From Bryobacterales bacterium (GTDB lineage: Bacteria > Acidobacteriota > Terriglobia > Bryobacterales > UBA6623), in contig CBDFIK010000006.1 in NCBI GenBank assembly GCA_965248105.1, forward strand, positions 1,859,761-1,923,760: a stretch of DNA of 64,000 bases. Reading direction: 5' to 3'. The notes under the pieces are model-generated. The model worked only from the letters and a program-made list of their open reading frames with translations. It ran no database searches and was not told the origin of the DNA. The translations under genes were made by a program, and so were the position numbers. Of this stretch, positions 24,575 through 51,744 are shown in pieces (the stretch's first letter is position 1; each line of letters opens with the position of its first letter).

Positions 24575-24725
24575 GGCAGCCCCCTCTTCCCAAAGTCAGC
24601 CATTAAGCAGAGCTAACCTGACTTAGTGCTTGGTTGCAAAAGTTCGCGTTATTTGAAAAGCCCTTTCCCGAAGGACCATACGATCGTCCGTCTGGCCCGG
24701 AAGTGGTTTGTTTGCAGAGTCTTCC

Positions 24726-24750
24726 GAGCCGCGACCGTGAGGGAGCGGTC
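24726..24750 (+). repeat. REP-like family A copy (GAGCCGCGACCGTGAGGGAGCGGTC)
   Basis: Similar to 33951-33975 (GAGCCGCGAGTGTGAGCGAGCGGTC). Confidence 0.65.
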
Positions 24751-25093
24751 CAGGGATTGTCCGCCTATAACCTATCCTGAATTTATGCAACCAAGCATTA
24801 GCCCGCTTCAAAGAAAGTTGACGATGCGATGAAGGACTCCGAAGAGGTTACCAGCTTCTGACCATCCTTCGCCCTGATTGGCCATACAAGCCGCGCCCTA
24901 ATCACGACCGAAACGTGGTGACCCCTCCCGAGCCGACCGCAAGTTTCCCGAAAGGGTAGCTGAGCGCCGTTCGCTGCGATACCCTTGAGAAACGGGCGGT
25001 CGCGTTGGCGGCTGGACGTAGTGGTAACCCCGATCGGGCGCATCGAGCGGCGAGCAACCGCGAAGACCCGGCGGTGAAGCTTTCCTGAAGAAG

Positions 25094-40771: not shown

Positions 40772-40867
40772 GAAAAATCGGGTACAGCCAGCCAATTCGC
40801 TTCAGGCTAAGTGCTTTGTTTCTTGGGTCATGACGGGGAGCGAATTGGTGGCAGTCCCCGATTTTTC
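40772..40867. repeat. Nested imperfect inverted-repeat element (family D), copy 1
   Basis: Arms GAAAAATCGGGTACAGCCAGCCAATTCGCT and AGCGAATTGGTGGCAGTCCCCGATTTTTC pair at 27/30 positions around a 37-nt loop. Confidence 0.8.
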
Positions 40868-41491
40868 GCTCCTGCACGACTTTTGCCACGGGCTGCTAGC
40901 GTGCCTTCTTGTGGTCGATGCCACCACCGGAACGTTCGGTTGACACAGACTTGGCGCGCCAAGCGTGGCGTCTCATTTTGTCAAGCGGAGAAACAAGTCG
41001 GCGTCTTGAGGCGATGCAACCTCCCCCACCCGGGCCGGATGTGGGAAGCCCGCAACTGGCGCGAGAGCGGTTGGACCAGACCACTGGCTGAGATACGGAT
41101 ATGGAAAAGGCCATGATCATAGACGATTCGCGGGCCATGCGGCGAATCCTCGGTGAAACGGTGCGCGAATTGGGCTTCGAGGTCAGCGAGGCGTCTAACG
41201 GTCGCGAGGCTCTCGCGAAGCTCGACAACATGGGACCGCCGGTGCGCTTGATGCTGGTCGACTGGAACATGCCGGAGATGAACGGATTGGAATTTGTGAC
41301 CAGACTTCGCCAGGACGAGCGGTTCCAAGCATCTCTCATCGTCATGGTGACCACCGAGACGGCGATCTGAGAACGGCGCTGACAAACTAGACCACATAGC
41401 GGCGGTGTGAAGGCTCCCAGAGGAGGCGGAGGACCAAGCCGCTGATGTGGTCCGCAAGCATCCCCGAGGTGTTTTGTGGAACACCGGAGGG

Positions 41492-46726: not shown

Positions 46727-48325
46727 CTATCTCACCGCTTCGATCATTTGCTGTTGCTGGGAGGTAAACCGGCAGCCTACGGGTGACCCCGCGGTGCGTT
46801 GGGCGGCAAGCGTATCTCCTCGGCTGCGATAAGCGAGGATCAAGTTGTTGCGGGCATCGAAGTTACAAGGATCGATTCCGAGTGCGGTCCGAAAAGTCTC
46901 GGCGGCCTCCTCGCCGCGACCAAGCGCGTACAGGGCAGCTCCATAGTTCGTCAGCGCCTGCGGGTCGCCTGGCGATGCGGTCAGCGCTACCGAAAACTCG
47001 CGGGAAGCATCCGAGGGGCGGCCCATCTGCAGGTAGACAACACCCATCTCGGTCGCTACATCGGGGTCGTGGGGAGCCAGAGATCGGGCTTCATCCAACA
47101 GCCGAAGCTGCTCATTGCGCGCCGGCGGCTGCTTCGCTCCAAGAGCTCTCGCGAGCTGAATCTTGGGGCGAACCTTGGCTGGGGATTTAGCCACCGTATC
47201 CCGCCAAAGGCTCTCTTCGCTGTGCCACACCCAACTTCTTTGCAAGCTAAGCCCGCTGAGCAGAAGAGCTAACACCGCGACCGTGTATCGCGGAGCGCGC
47301 GCCAAAATGATCCCGATCGCGAGACTCAGGCTGAGTAAAGGCAGATACAGCCGGCGTTCCGCTACCAAGTCCGCCAGCGGAATGATGCTCGACGTCGGAA
47401 CCAGCAGCACCAGACCCCCCAGCAGCCAGAACGCTCCCGGCCACTTGCGTAAAGACCAGCAGCTCGCAATAACGACCGCCGCCAGTGTGACCCACGCCCC
47501 CAGCGTCACGGCGTCCCACTCGGTGGAGAGCCGAAAGTCGCGATCGAAATTAAGCCCCGCGGGCCAAACCAGCAGCCGCAGGTACTCCCAAACAGCCCGG
47601 CCTTGAGTCAGGAAGTAGGTTCCGGGTGTGATCTCACCCAACCCAACTGCGATGCCCGCTCCCTTCGTAACGAGAGCGGCGTAGAAGAGTCGGGCTGTGG
47701 CCAGCATTCCGATCCCCAGGGCAGCGGCGAGCGGTCGCATCATTCGCGACCACTCGATATCGCTTCTACCGCCCAGTGGGCCGGCTCGCCGACGCATCCA
47801 TTCATAGCCTGCCAAGAAAACCGGGAAGGCAATCGCCTCTTCTTTAGCCAGCAAGCCAGCCGTGAAGTAGGCTACGGCACGCCACTGGTTGCCGCCGTTC
47901 CACGCGCGCCAAGACAACAGGCAAAACAAAGCCGCCAGCAGCGTGGCTCGGCCAAAGACGTACGCAATCGCTTCTGTCTGGACTGGATGGACCGCGAACA
48001 CCACGGTTGCAACGATCGCCGCCCGCCTCCCAACCAGCCGGTGGAAGACCGACCAAGCCAACCAAACCACCATGAGATGGCAGGCGAGGTTCACCGCGTG
48101 ATACCCCCACGCTTCGGTTCCACCAAGCTGGTAGTTCAGCCAGAACGTCAGGTAGGTGAGAGGCCGTGTGCGTTCCAGCCGAAAGACTTCCCACCAACCC
48201 GAAGGGGAAGTCACTATGGGATCAGAAAACAGTGAATAATCATCGAAGTGAAAAGACGAACTAAGCGTGGAGCCAAAGGCGAGCAACACAAGCAACAGCA
48301 GCAGCCACGGCATTCGAGAGGTCAC
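46727..48325 (-). CDS. TMTC-like (DUF1736/GT-C) multi-pass membrane protein with C-terminal TPRs
   Basis: FHFDD luminal motif, RPLTYLTF, YHAVNLACH, FAVHPVQTEAIAYVFGR, LLAKEEA, VAERRLYLP, WHSEESLW, then TPR repeats. Confidence 0.82.
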   Translation of the reverse strand: MTSRMPWLLLLLVLLAFGSTLSSSFHFDDYSLFSDPIVTSPSGWWEVFRLERTRPLTYLTFWLNYQLGGTEAWGYHAVNLACHLMVVWLAWSVFHRLVGRRAAIVATVVFAVHPVQTEAIAYVFGRATLLAALFCLLSWRAWNGGNQWRAVAYFTAGLLAKEEAIAFPVFLAGYEWMRRRAGPLGGRSDIEWSRMMRPLAAALGIGMLATARLFYAALVTKGAGIAVGLGEITPGTYFLTQGRAVWEYLRLLVWPAGLNFDRDFRLSTEWDAVTLGAWVTLAAVVIASCWSLRKWPGAFWLLGGLVLLVPTSSIIPLADLVAERRLYLPLLSLSLAIGIILARAPRYTVAVLALLLSGLSLQRSWVWHSEESLWRDTVAKSPAKVRPKIQLARALGAKQPPARNEQLRLLDEARSLAPHDPDVATEMGVVYLQMGRPSDASREFSVALTASPGDPQALTNYGAALYALGRGEEAAETFRTALGIDPCNFDARNNLILAYRSRGDTLAAQRTAGSPVGCRFTSQQQQMIEAVR

Positions 48326-48416
48326 GGTGACCTGGAGCCGGTCCCCGGTGGTTCAGGTTGGCTCCGTTCCTCGCTTCAATGGTTGATTTCGCTCAACAAG
48401 CAGGCGCGGTCGGATC

Positions 48417-49373
48417 TCAGGCTGAATCTCTTGAACAGCGCTCCAAAAACCGGTCGTAATCACGAATATAGTCATCGGCATCGTAGGGCTCCGAGGCGAA
48501 CACCAACAACACCGCGTCAAGAGAGTATCTATAGTGGATGCTCCACACCATGGGGGGCAGGTAGAGCCCCACGTTGGGTTGCTGTAAGTCGAATTGCTGT
48601 CGATTCACACCGTCGTCGGCAACCACCGAGCAGCGGCCCTTAATGCAGATGAGGAACTGTTGACATTCAATATGGGCATGTTCGCCCCGCGTTTCTTCGC
48701 TTGGCACATCGAAGACGAGAAAATATCGCTTCACGGGAAAGGGCACATGATGCTCAAACTCGCCCGCACTGAGATTGCCGCGTAGATCTTTCACCAGCGG
48801 CAAACGATGCAACATAACACGCTTGACACTGGTGCTTTCGACGCCGGGCTCCTCGAGCTCGCCGGGATCAAGCACTGAGGTGTCCGGACGCAGCGAGCCG
48901 GCATTCACATAACCGGAGATTCTTGCCGGATTGCCGACCACGATCGCATTCGGTGGTACTGAACGTGTTACAACCGCGCCGGAACCAATCATCGCATTGC
49001 GGCCAATCGTCAAGCCGGGCAGGATGGTCGCATTGGCTCCGATGGACGCCCCTTGGCACACCGTCGTCTTGGGATAACTGTCCAGATACTGCCGGCTGCG
49101 AGGAAACGGGTCATTGGTAAAAGTTGCATTCGGGCCGATGAAAACATCATCTTCAATTGTGATCCCATCCCAAATCTGGACCCCCGATTTCACTGTGACG
49201 CGATTTCCAATGACCACGTCGTTTTCCACGAACACGTGATCGCAGATGTTGGACTCCTCTCCAATGTGAGCACCGGGTAGGACGTGGGCAAATGCCCAGA
49301 TCCGCGTGCCCTTGCCCACATGGTCGGTTTCACAGCAACCCAGCTGATGAACGAAGTAAGTTTTCTCACTCAC
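48417..49373 (-). CDS. WxcM-like bifunctional N-acyltransferase (hexapeptide) / sugar 3,4-ketoisomerase (FdtA/QdtA cupin)
   Basis: [28 protein letters not shown]; then [31 protein letters not shown]. Confidence 0.9.
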
Positions 49374-50331
49374 CCGACTGTCTCTCCACTGAGCCGGCGC
49401 TCCGGCCGGGGAAAACGTCTGTGCGCATCACAACGGCTAACGGTCTGCCCTGGGTGTTACCGTAAGTGCGCCATATATAAGCCCCGACAATTCCCAGTCC
49501 CATCATATTCAAGCTGCCGAAAAACAGAATCGTAATCACAGTTGCAGCGTAGCCGGGCGCCTGCAGCCCACCAGTGATACGCAGGACGCCAACCAGTAGA
49601 GCGAAACACACGGAAAATAACAACCCAGCGCCACCCACGGCAATCAGAATCTTTATCGGCAAATCGGAGAACGCAAACACACTGTCCATGACGTAATCAA
49701 GCTTCTTACGCAAGGTCCAAGCGGTTTTGCCATGTCGGCGCCGCCGTCGGCGATAGTGGACCACCTTGCGCCGAAATCCTAACCAGAAAAGCAAACCGAT
49801 GAGCGAGTTGTGGCTCTCCTCCAGTTTCAAGAGGGCCCGGCGAAACAGCTGGTTGCAACCGAACACATCCACGCCGCCCTCGGGAACCTCAGCTATAACC
49901 ATCCGACGGTAGAACCACCAAAACGCTCGCGACGCCAATCGACTCAACGGAGGATCCTCACGGCTCTCCCGCGCGCCAATCGCCACGTCGCATTCGTCGG
50001 ATCTGAGACTGCGAAAGAACTCCAAAACCAACTCCGGCGGCTCCTGGAGATCCGCAGCCATCACCGCGAAGTGCTCACCTTGGGCGGCCTGCAGCCCGCT
50101 ACGAATACCGGCCAGGGATCCGTAATTGCGTGAATGCAATAGCAACTGTGAGGCGAACCCCATCTTCGGCAAACCGTTCTTTAGCAGCTCATGACAGCGA
50201 TCCGGGCTGCCGTCCACCACAAAGACCACTTCCAAACGGGCATCGAGCGACGCTTGGATCTGTTCAAGCGCGTTCAGCAAATCCGGTATCGATTCCTCAT
50301 TCTTATAGACGGGGATAACCAGTGAAACCAT
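49366..50331 (-). CDS. GT2 polyprenol-phosphate glycosyltransferase (GtrB/ArnC/DPM-like)
   Basis: [33 protein letters not shown], two C-terminal TM helices, [11 protein letters not shown]. Confidence 0.88.
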
Positions 50332-51431
50332 CAGCGTTCCCAGCGATTCATGATGTCACAACCGCGCCTCACGTGATCGAGGTCCAGTTCCGGATAGCAA
50401 GGCAAGGTAAGAATTTCACGCACCGCCTGCTCACTGGCCGGCAGATGAACGTGGCGATAGTCTGTTTTCAGAAACGGCTGTTGGTAATCGAGCAGTGGAT
50501 AATGAACGTCTGTCGAGACACCGTGCTGCTTCAGGTAATTGCGTAAGGCGTCCCGCCTGGCACTTCGCACCACGTAGAGGTGTGCCACGTAGTCGTCGCC
50601 ATCGACCGGAGGCGTCAAGATATCCGGGTGCTTGAGTGTCGCACTGTAACATTTGGCTACCGCTCTGCGTTGGGCGTTCCAACGGTCGAGGAAACCCAGC
50701 TTTACCCGCAACAACGCCGCCTGAAGCTCGTCGAGACGACCGTTTCTGCCGCCTCGATGCAAAACGACATATTTGTCCTGCCAGCCATACTGACGCAGGT
50801 TTTTTACGCGCCGGGCGAGGGCGGCATCGGAAGTCGCCACCGCACCAGCCTCACCCAGAGCACCCAAATTCTTTGTGGGATAAAAACTGAAGGCAGCCCC
50901 GTCACCCCAGGAACCGGCGCGCCGACCGTTCAGTGAAGCGCCGTGAGACTGGGCGCAGTCCTCAACCAGGGCCAAGCCGTTTTGTTCTGAGAGGGCGCGC
51001 AGGCCTACCATATCCGCCATGCGTCCAAACAAATGGGTAGCAATCACAACCCTGGTGCGCGCCGTGATCTGCCGACCGACCGACTCCGGGGACAGCGTCA
51101 GCGTTGCTGGATCCACGTCGGCGTAAACTGGGACCGCCCCGACTGCAAGTATTGCCGTAGTCGCGTACATCCCGGCATTAGGGGCGGTGACGACTTCGTC
51201 CCGGGGACCCACTTCGAGCGCACGGAGCAAGAGATCCAGGGCATCAGTGCCACTGGCGACACCGACACAGTGGCTCGCGCCACAATAGGCGGCAAATTCC
51301 TCTTCAAAGGCATGCACCTCCGGGCCCAGCACAAACCAGCCGCTACTCACGACGCGTTCAACGGTCGCCATAAGCGCCTCGGCCAAAGGAGCCGTGTGCG
51401 CCCTGAGATCATTGATCTTCTCGAGTGGCAT
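50331..51431 (-). CDS. DegT/DnrJ/EryC1/StrS PLP aminotransferase (FdtB/QdtB-like)
   Basis: LGPEVHAFEEEFA, SGTDAL, EDCAQSHGA, FSFYPTKNLGALG, NGRLDELQAA. Confidence 0.92.
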   Translation of the reverse strand: MPLEKINDLRAHTAPLAEALMATVERVVSSGWFVLGPEVHAFEEEFAAYCGASHCVGVASGTDALDLLLRALEVGPRDEVVTAPNAGMYATTAILAVGAVPVYADVDPATLTLSPESVGRQITARTRVVIATHLFGRMADMVGLRALSEQNGLALVEDCAQSHGASLNGRRAGSWGDGAAFSFYPTKNLGALGEAGAVATSDAALARRVKNLRQYGWQDKYVVLHRGGRNGRLDELQAALLRVKLGFLDRWNAQRRAVAKCYSATLKHPDILTPPVDGDDYVAHLYVVRSARRDALRNYLKQHGVSTDVHYPLLDYQQPFLKTDYRHVHLPASEQAVREILTLPCYPELDLDHVRRGCDIMNRWER

Positions 51432-51483
51432 AACGGTACAGCAGCCCTAGGCCGCGATACGAGCCGCCTCGCGCCTCACGCGA

Positions 51484-51744
51484 CTACTTCTGGAGTCTAG
51501 ACAACGCGTTCTTCGCCAAACGGCTATCGGGGTCGATAGCGAGAACATCCTGGTAGGCACGCATTGCCTCTTGTTGTCTCCCATACTGTTCATAGATCCG
51601 GCCCAACAAGACTCGAGCCGGAATGTCGCCAGGTTCCACCTGGATTGCCTTCCGGCAGTGCGCCAGCGGCAGTTTCTCGTCTCCCCGCTTCCGGTAGATA
51701 TCCGCCAGCAGCCGAACAGGCCGGGTTATTTGGAAAGCCGGCCT
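51484..51744 (-). pseudogene. TPR-repeat gene fragment lacking an in-frame start
   Basis: Manual translation includes RLLADIYRKRGDEKLPLAHCRKAIQVEPGDIPARVLLGRIYEQYGRQQEAMRAYQDVLAIDPDSRLAKNALSRLQK*; bounded upstream by in-frame TGA at 51745-51747. Confidence 0.6.

Follow-up and report, generated by a model that had tools for sequence, protein, structure and literature searches.

Four genes at positions 46727–51431 of a 64,000-nucleotide stretch of Bryobacterales DNA encode a predicted donor-sugar cassette of three enzymes and, next to it, a membrane glycosyltransferase that has the GT-C fold and tetratricopeptide repeats (TPRs) and resembles the TMTC proteins. The whole stretch, here called the window, corresponds to C6:1859761–1923760 of a 5.55-Mb metagenome-assembled genome (MAG) of Bryobacterales (Acidobacteriota). 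On balance, the adjacency appears to be the product of a recent, unstable rearrangement of two units of different age, and not a dedicated four-gene system. Genes 1–3 form a conserved and portable cassette for putative donor synthesis, and gene 4 is an old, widely conserved stand-alone gene of Bryobacterales. The pairing is judged to be unconserved because the linkage is present in one subclade only and has been repeatedly lost or disrupted.

All four open reading frames (ORFs) lie on the minus strand in the same orientation, in the order aminotransferase, GT2, fusion protein, and GT-C. Genes 1 and 2 overlap by 1 nt, genes 2 and 3 by 8 nt, and genes 3 and 4 are separated by 91 bp. This layout of four co-oriented genes, the first three overlapping, had been described in an earlier interpretation based on the DNA letters (the sequence-only reading), and the ORF listing confirms it.

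Linkage of the cassette to the GT-C gene

More than 900 relatives of gene 4 are detectable, and 257 loci were confirmed in reference genomes, nearly all of them from Bryobacterales or other Acidobacteriota. Gene neighbourhoods were counted for the best 80 of the 257 confirmed loci, with identities of 40–87%. Cassette genes are located within 8 kb of the GT-C gene at 1 of these 80 loci, and that locus is rearranged. The sequence-only reading had taken the four genes for one dedicated system and had named unconserved linkage as the finding that would speak against it; the count of 1 in 80 speaks against this proposal. The conserved neighbour is the divergent gene of endonuclease III (nth), present at 43 of the 80 loci; nth of the window's genome is 1.2 Mb away from gene 4. 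Among the 77 genomes of the window's family, the GT-C gene occurs in 31 and the cassette in only 5. Because gene 4 is old and stands alone, its function and its lipid-linked donor are expected to be independent of the cassette, and the TMTC-like enzyme probably keeps its ancestral job.

The window-type pairing is limited to one subclade of one genus, that is, to a few close relatives among soil Acidobacteria (Table 1). The cassette is absent within the genus from G028, G088, G124, L087, L154, and L155. Four relatives that share the downstream surroundings of the window locus have no cassette, and in a further one it is disrupted. Four cassette-less relatives have four different junctions upstream of the GT-C gene, formed by nth and a 65-bp FdtA tail, by the 174-bp repeat, by a DUF4864 gene, and by SnoaL/transposase sequence with a 112-bp tail. 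The loci of L087 and L155 are read as deletions, since 65 and 112 bp of the fusion gene remain there. No single clean history fits the locus: L154 resembles an empty site and L087 and L155 resemble deletions, yet L087 has the order-wide ancestral neighbour nth.

Table 1. State of the GT-C gene and the cassette in the window and in related genomes
Genome	GT-C gene	Cassette	Arrangement
Window	intact	intact	adjacent
L088	90% identical	present	as in the window
G102/L008	split by inversion	insertion inside fusion gene	adjacent, disrupted
G028	96% identical, dS 0.08	none	homology stops at the stop codon of the fusion gene (48417), followed by a 174-bp dispersed repeat
L087	92% identical	none	65 bp of the fusion gene 3' end left, beside nth
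L155	95% identical	none	112 bp of the fusion gene 3' end left
L154	88% identical	none	exactly window 48384–51723 missing; reads like an empty site
G120	no TMTC-like gene in genome	93% identical	two intact c61 genes precede the cassette
G050	on another contig	alone	flanked by inverted copies of the 128-bp repeat
G074 (sister genus)	present	present	unlinked

The junction between the two units can be located within the spacer between genes 3 and 4. Homology to G120, which has the cassette and no GT-C gene, begins at 48388, and homology to L154, which has the GT-C gene and no cassette, ends at 48383. From the junction onwards, a 3.3-kb segment is collinear with G120 at 88% identity, and the DNA homology to G120 ends at 51732. 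A fragment of this size, comprising the cassette and the stump of another gene, c61, would have been joined upstream of the resident GT-C gene in one subclade. The fragment is positioned 58 bp upstream of the GT-C start, and these 58 bp are what remains of the native GT-C leader.

The c61 proteins of G120 match window positions 51487–51726 with 77–79% identity over 78–80 residues (tblastn), and their transmembrane (TM) domain has no tblastn match anywhere in the window's genome. The two proteins, encoded in tandem in G120, are 702 and 747 residues long and contain 10–11 TM segments and C-terminal TPRs. Only three proteins in a set of 5.8 billion match c61, and Pfam has no match outside the TPRs. 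On sequence grounds, c61 is not taken for a relative of the TMTC proteins (hhalign probability 0.3%), and it is possibly a new GT-C-like family. Another reading took the TPR fragment upstream of the cassette for the operon's first gene, broken by a frameshift. This was rejected because the break at about 51725–51732 marks a recombination junction and no other part of c61 exists in the genome; the upstream frame belongs to the block on the thioredoxin side that is common to L154.

The region is rearrangement-prone and repeat-rich. Two dispersed repeats of 128 and 174 bp are present in 72 and 57 copies, respectively, in the window's genome, and both families appear to be either substrates or drivers of the rearrangements. 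Some relatives carry split cassette genes: the DegT gene of L088 is called as two ORFs of 240 and 122 residues, and the fusion gene of G050 contains two TGA stops. These frameshifts and stops could reflect real decay or homopolymer errors of long-read sequencing.

The putative donor-synthesis cassette

Gene 1 encodes a DegT/DnrJ/EryC1 aminotransferase (PF01041, 3e-101 in Pfam). QdtB (3FRK, 3.7e-85) is among its best solved relatives in the PDB, where several sugar C3-aminotransferases were found; the high-ranking 2OGA and WbpE entries are ones that we take to be enzymes of this kind. Gene 2 matches PF00535 in Pfam, and its similarity to GtrB of Synechocystis (5EKP, 2e-42) covers residues 2–301, the full length including the C-terminal membrane helices. 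ArnC follows in the PDB at about 1e-25. The NCBIfam models ranked highest for gene 2 are PgfS (5.9e-47) and ArnC (3.5e-30), with scores far under their equivalog cut-offs. A crude hydrophobicity scan detects three hydrophobic segments in this protein, including the C-terminal ones.

Gene 3 unites a hexapeptide-repeat acetyltransferase (Hexapep, 1.7e-23) and an FdtA cupin (PF05523, 4.8e-52) in one protein according to Pfam. Residues 8–311, its full length, align with the "WxcM-like protein" 4MZU (1.1e-119), presumably FdtD of Shewanella denitrificans, a bifunctional ketoisomerase/N-acetyltransferase. The isomerase half matches FdtA (2PA7, 1.8e-30) and QdtA (4ZU7, 1.1e-22), and the acetyltransferase half matches the N-acetyltransferase 7S43 (1.4e-57) and QdtC (3FS8, 1.3e-18). 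The assignments made by the sequence-only reading (isomerase, aminotransferase, N-acyltransferase, and GtrB-like GT2) are thus borne out by Pfam and PDB matches. The isomerase and N-acyltransferase domains are both present as predicted; they belong to one fusion gene and not to separate genes.

The proposed pathway is read from homology and from the conserved linkage of the genes. RmlB, encoded elsewhere, and a candidate RmlA would supply dTDP-4-keto-6-deoxyglucose, which the cupin half of gene 3 would isomerise to the 3-keto sugar. Gene 1 would aminate the sugar at C3, and the acetyltransferase half of gene 3 would N-acetylate it to dTDP-Fuc3NAc or dTDP-Qui3NAc. The sugar is probably one of these two, and the scores do not separate the galacto (Fuc3N) from the gluco (Qui3N) form. 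The GT2 encoded by gene 2 would then load the sugar onto undecaprenyl phosphate for a GT-C enzyme at the periplasmic face. Synthesis of a polyprenyl-phosphate-linked 3-acetamido-3,6-dideoxyhexose by the cassette is likely, and this relay is backed by how consistently a GT2 accompanies the FdtD-like fusion gene.

The RmlB gene lies on another contig and scores 458.8 bits, over its curated cut-off. The best RmlA-like match in the genome reaches only 244.7 bits, where the cut-off is 360.65. The locus, bounded by the thioredoxin-like gene and cheX, contains no flippase gene of the GtrA/SMR, MATE, or Wzx type. A genome-wide search for GtrA (PF04138) found no match, though it detected the family in control genomes; outside the locus, the flippase search covered this family only. 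The statement of the sequence-only reading that the cluster has neither a flippase nor a dTDP-glucose dehydratase gene is therefore correct.

A full-length fused acetyltransferase/isomerase gene occurs in about 47 of the 301 genomes sampled from the order. At 18 of 20 such Bryobacterales loci, a GT2 that is 45–88% identical to gene 2 is located directly beside the fusion gene, and 12 of the loci include a DegT gene. A polytopic protein with at least 8–9 predicted TM segments and at least 450 residues is encoded within three genes at 15 of the 20 loci, and its family differs among them. These neighbours are YfhO-like proteins of 732 residues in five genomes, PMT_2-like proteins in two, unassigned proteins with 9–13 TM segments, and the two tandem c61 proteins of G120; several of the large polytopic neighbours in other genomes have no Pfam match. 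The GT-C of the window occurs at 0 of 18 other cassette loci. Since the donor module is conserved and the neighbouring GT-C swappable, the cassette follows the pattern of Gtr-type systems (PMC11127046, PMC8035078).

Some sampled genomes of the sister family (L123, L126, L127, L130, and L132) share a block composed of the fusion gene, the GT2, and genes for a YfhO-like protein of 732 residues and proteins of 197 and 1150 residues. This arrangement suggests a larger conserved glycosylation unit. In one other genome (L137), the gene directly downstream of the cassette encodes a secreted protein of 845 residues with three DUF4082 domains (7.5e-140), a possible candidate for an acceptor or glycan-binding protein.

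Structure and motifs of the TMTC-like protein

The protein encoded by gene 4 can be divided into an N-terminal region of about 11 TM helices (residues 1–390), a C-terminal domain of about three TPRs, and a cysteine-containing tail. Pfam matches TPRs at residues 407–505 and gives a weak PMT_2 match (3.7e-5) under its cut-off. The TPRs would be on the lumenal or periplasmic side, as suggested by the topology and by the conserved Cys487 and Cys518. The structure of residues 1–392, predicted by AlphaFold2 from 38 sequences, has a predicted local distance difference test score (pLDDT) of 91.9 and a predicted template modelling score of 0.92; the pLDDT of the gene 4 models overall is 89–92. Foldseek comparison of this structure with the PDB returned GT-C enzymes as all of the best matches (the top 17 real ones), with ArnT (5F15) first and AglB, Pmt4 (9I5K), STT3, EmbB, PglB, and ALG9/12 among the others, which establishes the GT-C fold that the sequence-only reading had assigned to this protein. 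The full-length model had matched only TPR proteins, and the search was redone with the TM domain alone. The profile of the TM domain has no match to PDB sequences at E ≤ 10.

Residues Asp28, Asp29, Arg54, His113, Pro114, Glu118, Arg126, Lys161, Glu162, and Arg325 are invariant across the 38 sequences. Asp28 and Asp29 are located in the first extracytoplasmic loop, so that the catalytic acidic residues of a TMTC-like protein, whose absence would have spoken against the sequence-only reading, are present. A comparison by eye with Table 4 of PMC7801869 indicates that the DD, RP (Arg54-Pro55), Arg126, and KE (Lys161-Glu162) motifs of TMTCs are kept. Asp261 in loop 4, Pro310/Pro316, and ERxxY (E323-R324-R325-x-Y327), read in the same manner, are invariant or nearly so. 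The SHKSY motif, which contacts mannose, and the tryptophan of the DW motif are not conserved in the gene 4 family in this comparison, and therefore the sugar used by gene 4 is not indicated. PMT_2 matches are found in 14 of 25 family members, and DUF1736 has no Pfam match at E ≤ 1 in gene 4 or any of its 24 relatives (0 of 25).

Gene 4 is TMTC-like by its architecture and motifs and lies within the PMT_2/ArnT clan. It is called only "TMTC-like" and is not assigned to GT105 proper, because SHKSY is absent and DUF1736 undetected. The description as a TMTC-like GT-C/TPR transferase given by the sequence-only reading accordingly holds for the fold, the TPRs, and part of the motifs, and fails for DUF1736.

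A paralogous TMTC-like GT-C/TPR protein of 604 residues is encoded outside the window on the same contig, directly after a gene for a KdsC-like phosphatase. It is 26–33% identical and carries the motif YDDY.

Selection, co-expression, and alternative readings

All four genes are under purifying selection. The ratio of non-synonymous to synonymous divergence (dN/dS) is 0.10–0.19 for the cassette against L088, G120, and G050. It is 0.17–0.19 for gene 1 against congeners, 0.10–0.15 for gene 3, and 0.17–0.32 for the GT-C gene. Between the window and L088, which share the arrangement, the cassette genes have a dS of 0.37–0.45 and a dN/dS of 0.13–0.19. Gln147 and Thr280 are the only residues that separate the cassette-adjacent GT-Cs from four cassette-less orthologues, and neither occupies a conserved motif position; therefore, there is no sign of a change in donor specificity.

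Several observations weigh against a rearrangement of functionally independent units. The c61 gene, probably the earlier partner of the cassette, is gone, yet the three cassette genes are intact and under purifying selection in two lineages that are a dS of about 0.4 apart. A lipid-linked sugar must have a consumer, and therefore the TMTC-like enzyme, as the nearest candidate, may serve. The 91-bp gap contains no terminator-like hairpin and no recognisable sigma-70-like promoter, and the four genes are probably co-transcribed, as judged from their arrangement; co-expression is likely because only 58 bp of the GT-C leader are left and the gap has no terminator. The cassette usually sits beside its GT-C. 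At L157, from another Acidobacteriota family, a TPR-less homologue of the gene 4 membrane domain (hhalign 99.3%, E 1.3e-20, 317 columns) is encoded directly upstream of a cassette-type GT2 (49% identical), with an acetyltransferase/isomerase fusion gene alongside, and therefore enzymes of this clan plausibly use this donor. The genome nevertheless encodes other possible players, namely the second GtrB-like GT2 with its 644-residue polytopic neighbour and the paralogous TMTC-like protein of 604 residues. The role of c61 as a glycosyltransferase is without support from Pfam, which has no match, or from hhalign, which is negative. Finally, the long-read MAG assemblies may hold frameshift and assembly errors. 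Use of the cassette sugar by the neighbouring TMTC-like enzyme in this organism is a tentative, rather doubtful prospect, and its use on proteins is quite improbable.

The best-surviving alternative, which we nevertheless consider unlikely, is that the genes are coupled and the acceptor is a glycan or lipid: the GT-C would add the amino sugar to O-antigen, core, lipid A, or exopolysaccharide in the periplasm. The order of aminotransferase, GT2, acyltransferase fusion, and GT-C resembles that of arnBCA(D)T. The GT2 is clearly homologous to ArnC, and the structure search with the GT-C domain places ArnT first. O-antigen branching is the only experimental precedent for this cassette type (PMC4878081), and elsewhere in Bryobacterales the cassette stands beside YfhO-like and PMT_2-like GT-Cs, which belong to glycopolymer-modifying families (PMC8035078). 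However, the pairing is not conserved, the TPR-bearing GT-Cs characterised to date act on proteins, and no O-antigen or exopolysaccharide genes flank the locus.

The four genes might instead constitute one system in which the GT-C O-glycosylates periplasmic or surface proteins, chosen by the TPRs, with undecaprenyl-phosphate-linked Fuc3NAc or Qui3NAc. This is quite unlikely, although the co-orientation, the short gap lacking a terminator, and the purifying selection that persists on the cassette after c61 loss agree with it. The GT-C fold with invariant DD and with KE and ERxxY as in TMTCs (PMC7801869) is likewise consistent with action on proteins, and protein-acting GT-C/TPR enzymes are known, namely the animal TMTCs and TfpW, which acts on pilin (bioRxiv 10.1101/2020.04.19.049825). 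Against it, the pairing occurs in a subclade of one genus only and has been lost repeatedly, and the 96%-identical orthologue of G028 has unchanged motifs and no cassette. No candidate acceptor gene is linked to the gene 4 locus, where nth is the conserved neighbour, and the lack of SHKSY conservation leaves the sugar unspecified. A dedicated amino-sugar protein-glycosylation system, though possible, is not supported by conservation. The related scenario, in which a mobile Fuc3NAc/Qui3NAc cassette recruited the resident TMTC-like enzyme after c61 loss and the sugar passes from undecaprenyl phosphate onto periplasmic or surface proteins, is distinctly improbable.

Decay of the locus, with the cassette on its way out of the genus after partner loss and the four-gene arrangement lacking a current function, would agree with the c61 stump, the absence of the cassette from six relatives, its interruption in G102, and the stops and frameshifts in G050 and L088, but is highly improbable given the four intact ORFs of the window, the low cassette dN/dS, and the possibility that the relatives' frameshifts are long-read errors.

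Under the favoured reading, a recent rearrangement of two units of different age, the lipid-linked sugar of the cassette would decorate an envelope glycoconjugate via whichever GT-C accepts it. As it stands, the locus should be regarded as an ordinary module for envelope glycosylation that has an interesting neighbour of recent date. Should the cassette act in the inferred way, a dTDP-derived 3-acetamido-3,6-dideoxyhexose joins the short list of polyprenyl-monophosphate sugars of "three-component" systems, and in soil Acidobacteria a donor module of 3 kb moves as one piece from one GT-C partner to another. If recruitment were true, it would be a case of natural donor switching in a very large bacterial enzyme family. 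The genus offers natural genotypes for tests of donor and acceptor: cassette with GT-C, GT-C alone, and cassette with another partner.

Comparison with known glycosylation systems

By gene description, the cassette is similar to the wxc cluster's region 3 in Xanthomonas campestris (wxcK-wxcL-wxcM-wxcN-wxcO), which also contains an aminotransferase, a GtrB-like GT2, and a WxcM-type fusion. Vorholter et al. reportedly described this region in 2001 as encoding an aminotransferase, a GtrB-like GT2, WxcM, and a small membrane protein. In Xanthomonas, mutants in wxcK and in wxcN no longer carry Fuc3NAc branches on their rhamnan O-antigen; region 3 is needed for these branches, which are placed onto the finished rhamnan (PMC4878081). 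In contrast, the window has no GtrA-like small membrane protein, the equivalent of WxcN, in its locus or genome and no O-antigen genes nearby, and the GT-C next to its cassette is a TMTC-like protein with TPRs that does not accompany the cassette elsewhere as a rule.

The sequence-only reading knew of no characterised case of the combination, which is less unprecedented than it assumed: besides the Fuc3NAc branches of wxc region 3 (PMC4878081), three-component GT-C systems with a conserved donor module and a variable GT-C are widespread (PMC11127046, PMC8035078). Gtr-type systems (GtrA/GtrB/Gtr*, GmlABC, CsbB/GtcA/YfhO, and the GT136 pentofuranose systems) combine a polyprenyl-phosphate sugar synthase and a transferase of the GT-C fold, as the window does. 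They differ from the window in that its predicted donor is a dTDP-derived 3-acetamido-3,6-dideoxyhexose and not Glc, Gal, GlcNAc, or Ribf, its locus has no flippase gene, and its sugar-biosynthesis genes are inside the same cassette. Furthermore, the synthase and GT-C of the window are not inherited as a unit and are gained and lost separately within the genus.

The second GtrB-like GT2 of the window's genome has its own polytopic partner of 644 residues. Its locus, outside the window, encodes a GT2 of 304 residues with C-terminal TM helices, a multi-TM protein of 336 residues, and the convergent 644-residue polytopic protein, which has an ArnT/PMT-like N-terminus.

The Arn (PmrHFIJKLM) pathway of lipid A aminoarabinose modification shares with the window a DegT aminotransferase, an ArnC-type GT2, an N-acylating fusion with a second sugar-modifying domain, and a GT-C; among solved structures, ArnC and ArnT rank first or close to first for gene 2 and for the GT-C domain of gene 4. 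However, the ArnB model scores 192.5 bits against a cut-off of 631 and the ArnC model 105.1 against 529, and the ArnA and ArnT models of NCBIfam have no match. The window locus also lacks a deformylase and ArnE/F, its predicted sugar is a dTDP-6-deoxyhexose and not UDP-Ara4N, and its GT-C carries TPRs.

To our knowledge, none of the numerous bacterial TMTC-like GT-C/TPR proteins has been characterised. Metazoan TMTC1–4, the protein O-mannosyltransferases of CAZy family GT105, combine an N-terminal GT-C domain of about 11 TM helices with C-terminal TPRs, as gene 4 does. Read by eye against Table 4 of PMC7801869, the two appear to share the loop-1 DD, a following RP(L), HPxxTEA, the loop-3 KE, a conserved loop-4 D, and the loop-5 ERxxY. 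Unlike the TMTCs, gene 4 has no detectable DUF1736, no conserved SHKSY, and only about three TPRs. Full-length prokaryotic TMTC homologues have already been noted (PMC7801869). The nearest studied bacterial GT-C/TPR protein, likened to gene 4 by description, is TfpW of Pseudomonas aeruginosa Pa5196/PA7. Eleven TM helices are predicted for it, the DDx motif of its periplasmic loop 1 is essential, and its C-terminal TPR domain is periplasmic; it glycosylates pilin from a polyprenyl-phosphate-linked sugar (bioRxiv 10.1101/2020.04.19.049825). The TfpW gene directly follows that of its acceptor, pilA, and the enzyme transfers D-arabinofuranose, whereas the window has no linked pilin or acceptor gene.

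Surroundings of the locus and feature coordinates

Table 2. Coordinates of the genes, junctions, and related loci
Feature	Position	Strand	Length	Remark
Gene 1, sugar C3-aminotransferase dependent on pyridoxal phosphate (FdtB/QdtB/WxcK-like)	50331–51431	−	366 aa	first gene of the cassette
Gene 2, GT2 of GtrB/ArnC/PgfS type (WxcL-like)	49366–50331	−	321 aa	predicted polyprenyl-phosphate sugar synthase
Gene 3, fused N-acetyltransferase (left-handed beta-helix) and 3,4-ketoisomerase (FdtA cupin)	48417–49373	−	318 aa	FdtD/WxcM type
Spacer between genes 3 and 4	48326–48416	−	91 bp	holds junction at about 48384–48388
Gene 4, TMTC-like GT-C-fold glycosyltransferase with TPRs	46727–48325	−	532 aa	
c61 stump (other membrane/TPR gene)	51484–51732	−	last ~80 codons	tblastn and DNA homology to G120
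Segment of c61 stump and three-gene cassette	48384–51732	−	3.3 kb	present or absent as a unit among congeners
Dispersed repeats, window	40772–40899; 24624–24797			
Dispersed repeats, relatives	L149 9441–9567, 13007–13137; L148 9736–9909			
c61 genes of G120	L120 12578–14821, 14944–17052	−	702/747 aa	tandem
RmlB gene	C5:1173014–1173964			window's genome
Second Gtr-like locus	C6:4007160–4010699			outside window
Paralogous TMTC-like protein	C6:1232249–1234063		604 aa	outside window
Cassette genes of L088	L088 4909–7764			DegT gene split (240 + 122 aa)
Fusion gene of G050	C5:442270–443221			two TGA stops
DUF4082 protein	L137 12571–15108		845 aa	
TPR-less homologue and cassette-type GT2	L157 7229–10022			

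Upstream, the locus is bounded by a divergent thioredoxin-like gene, beyond which ttcA-like, phoU-like, and pho4 genes are located. The downstream boundary is formed by the convergent cheX gene, and the cheX-cheR-cheB cluster is broken by an IS21 element.

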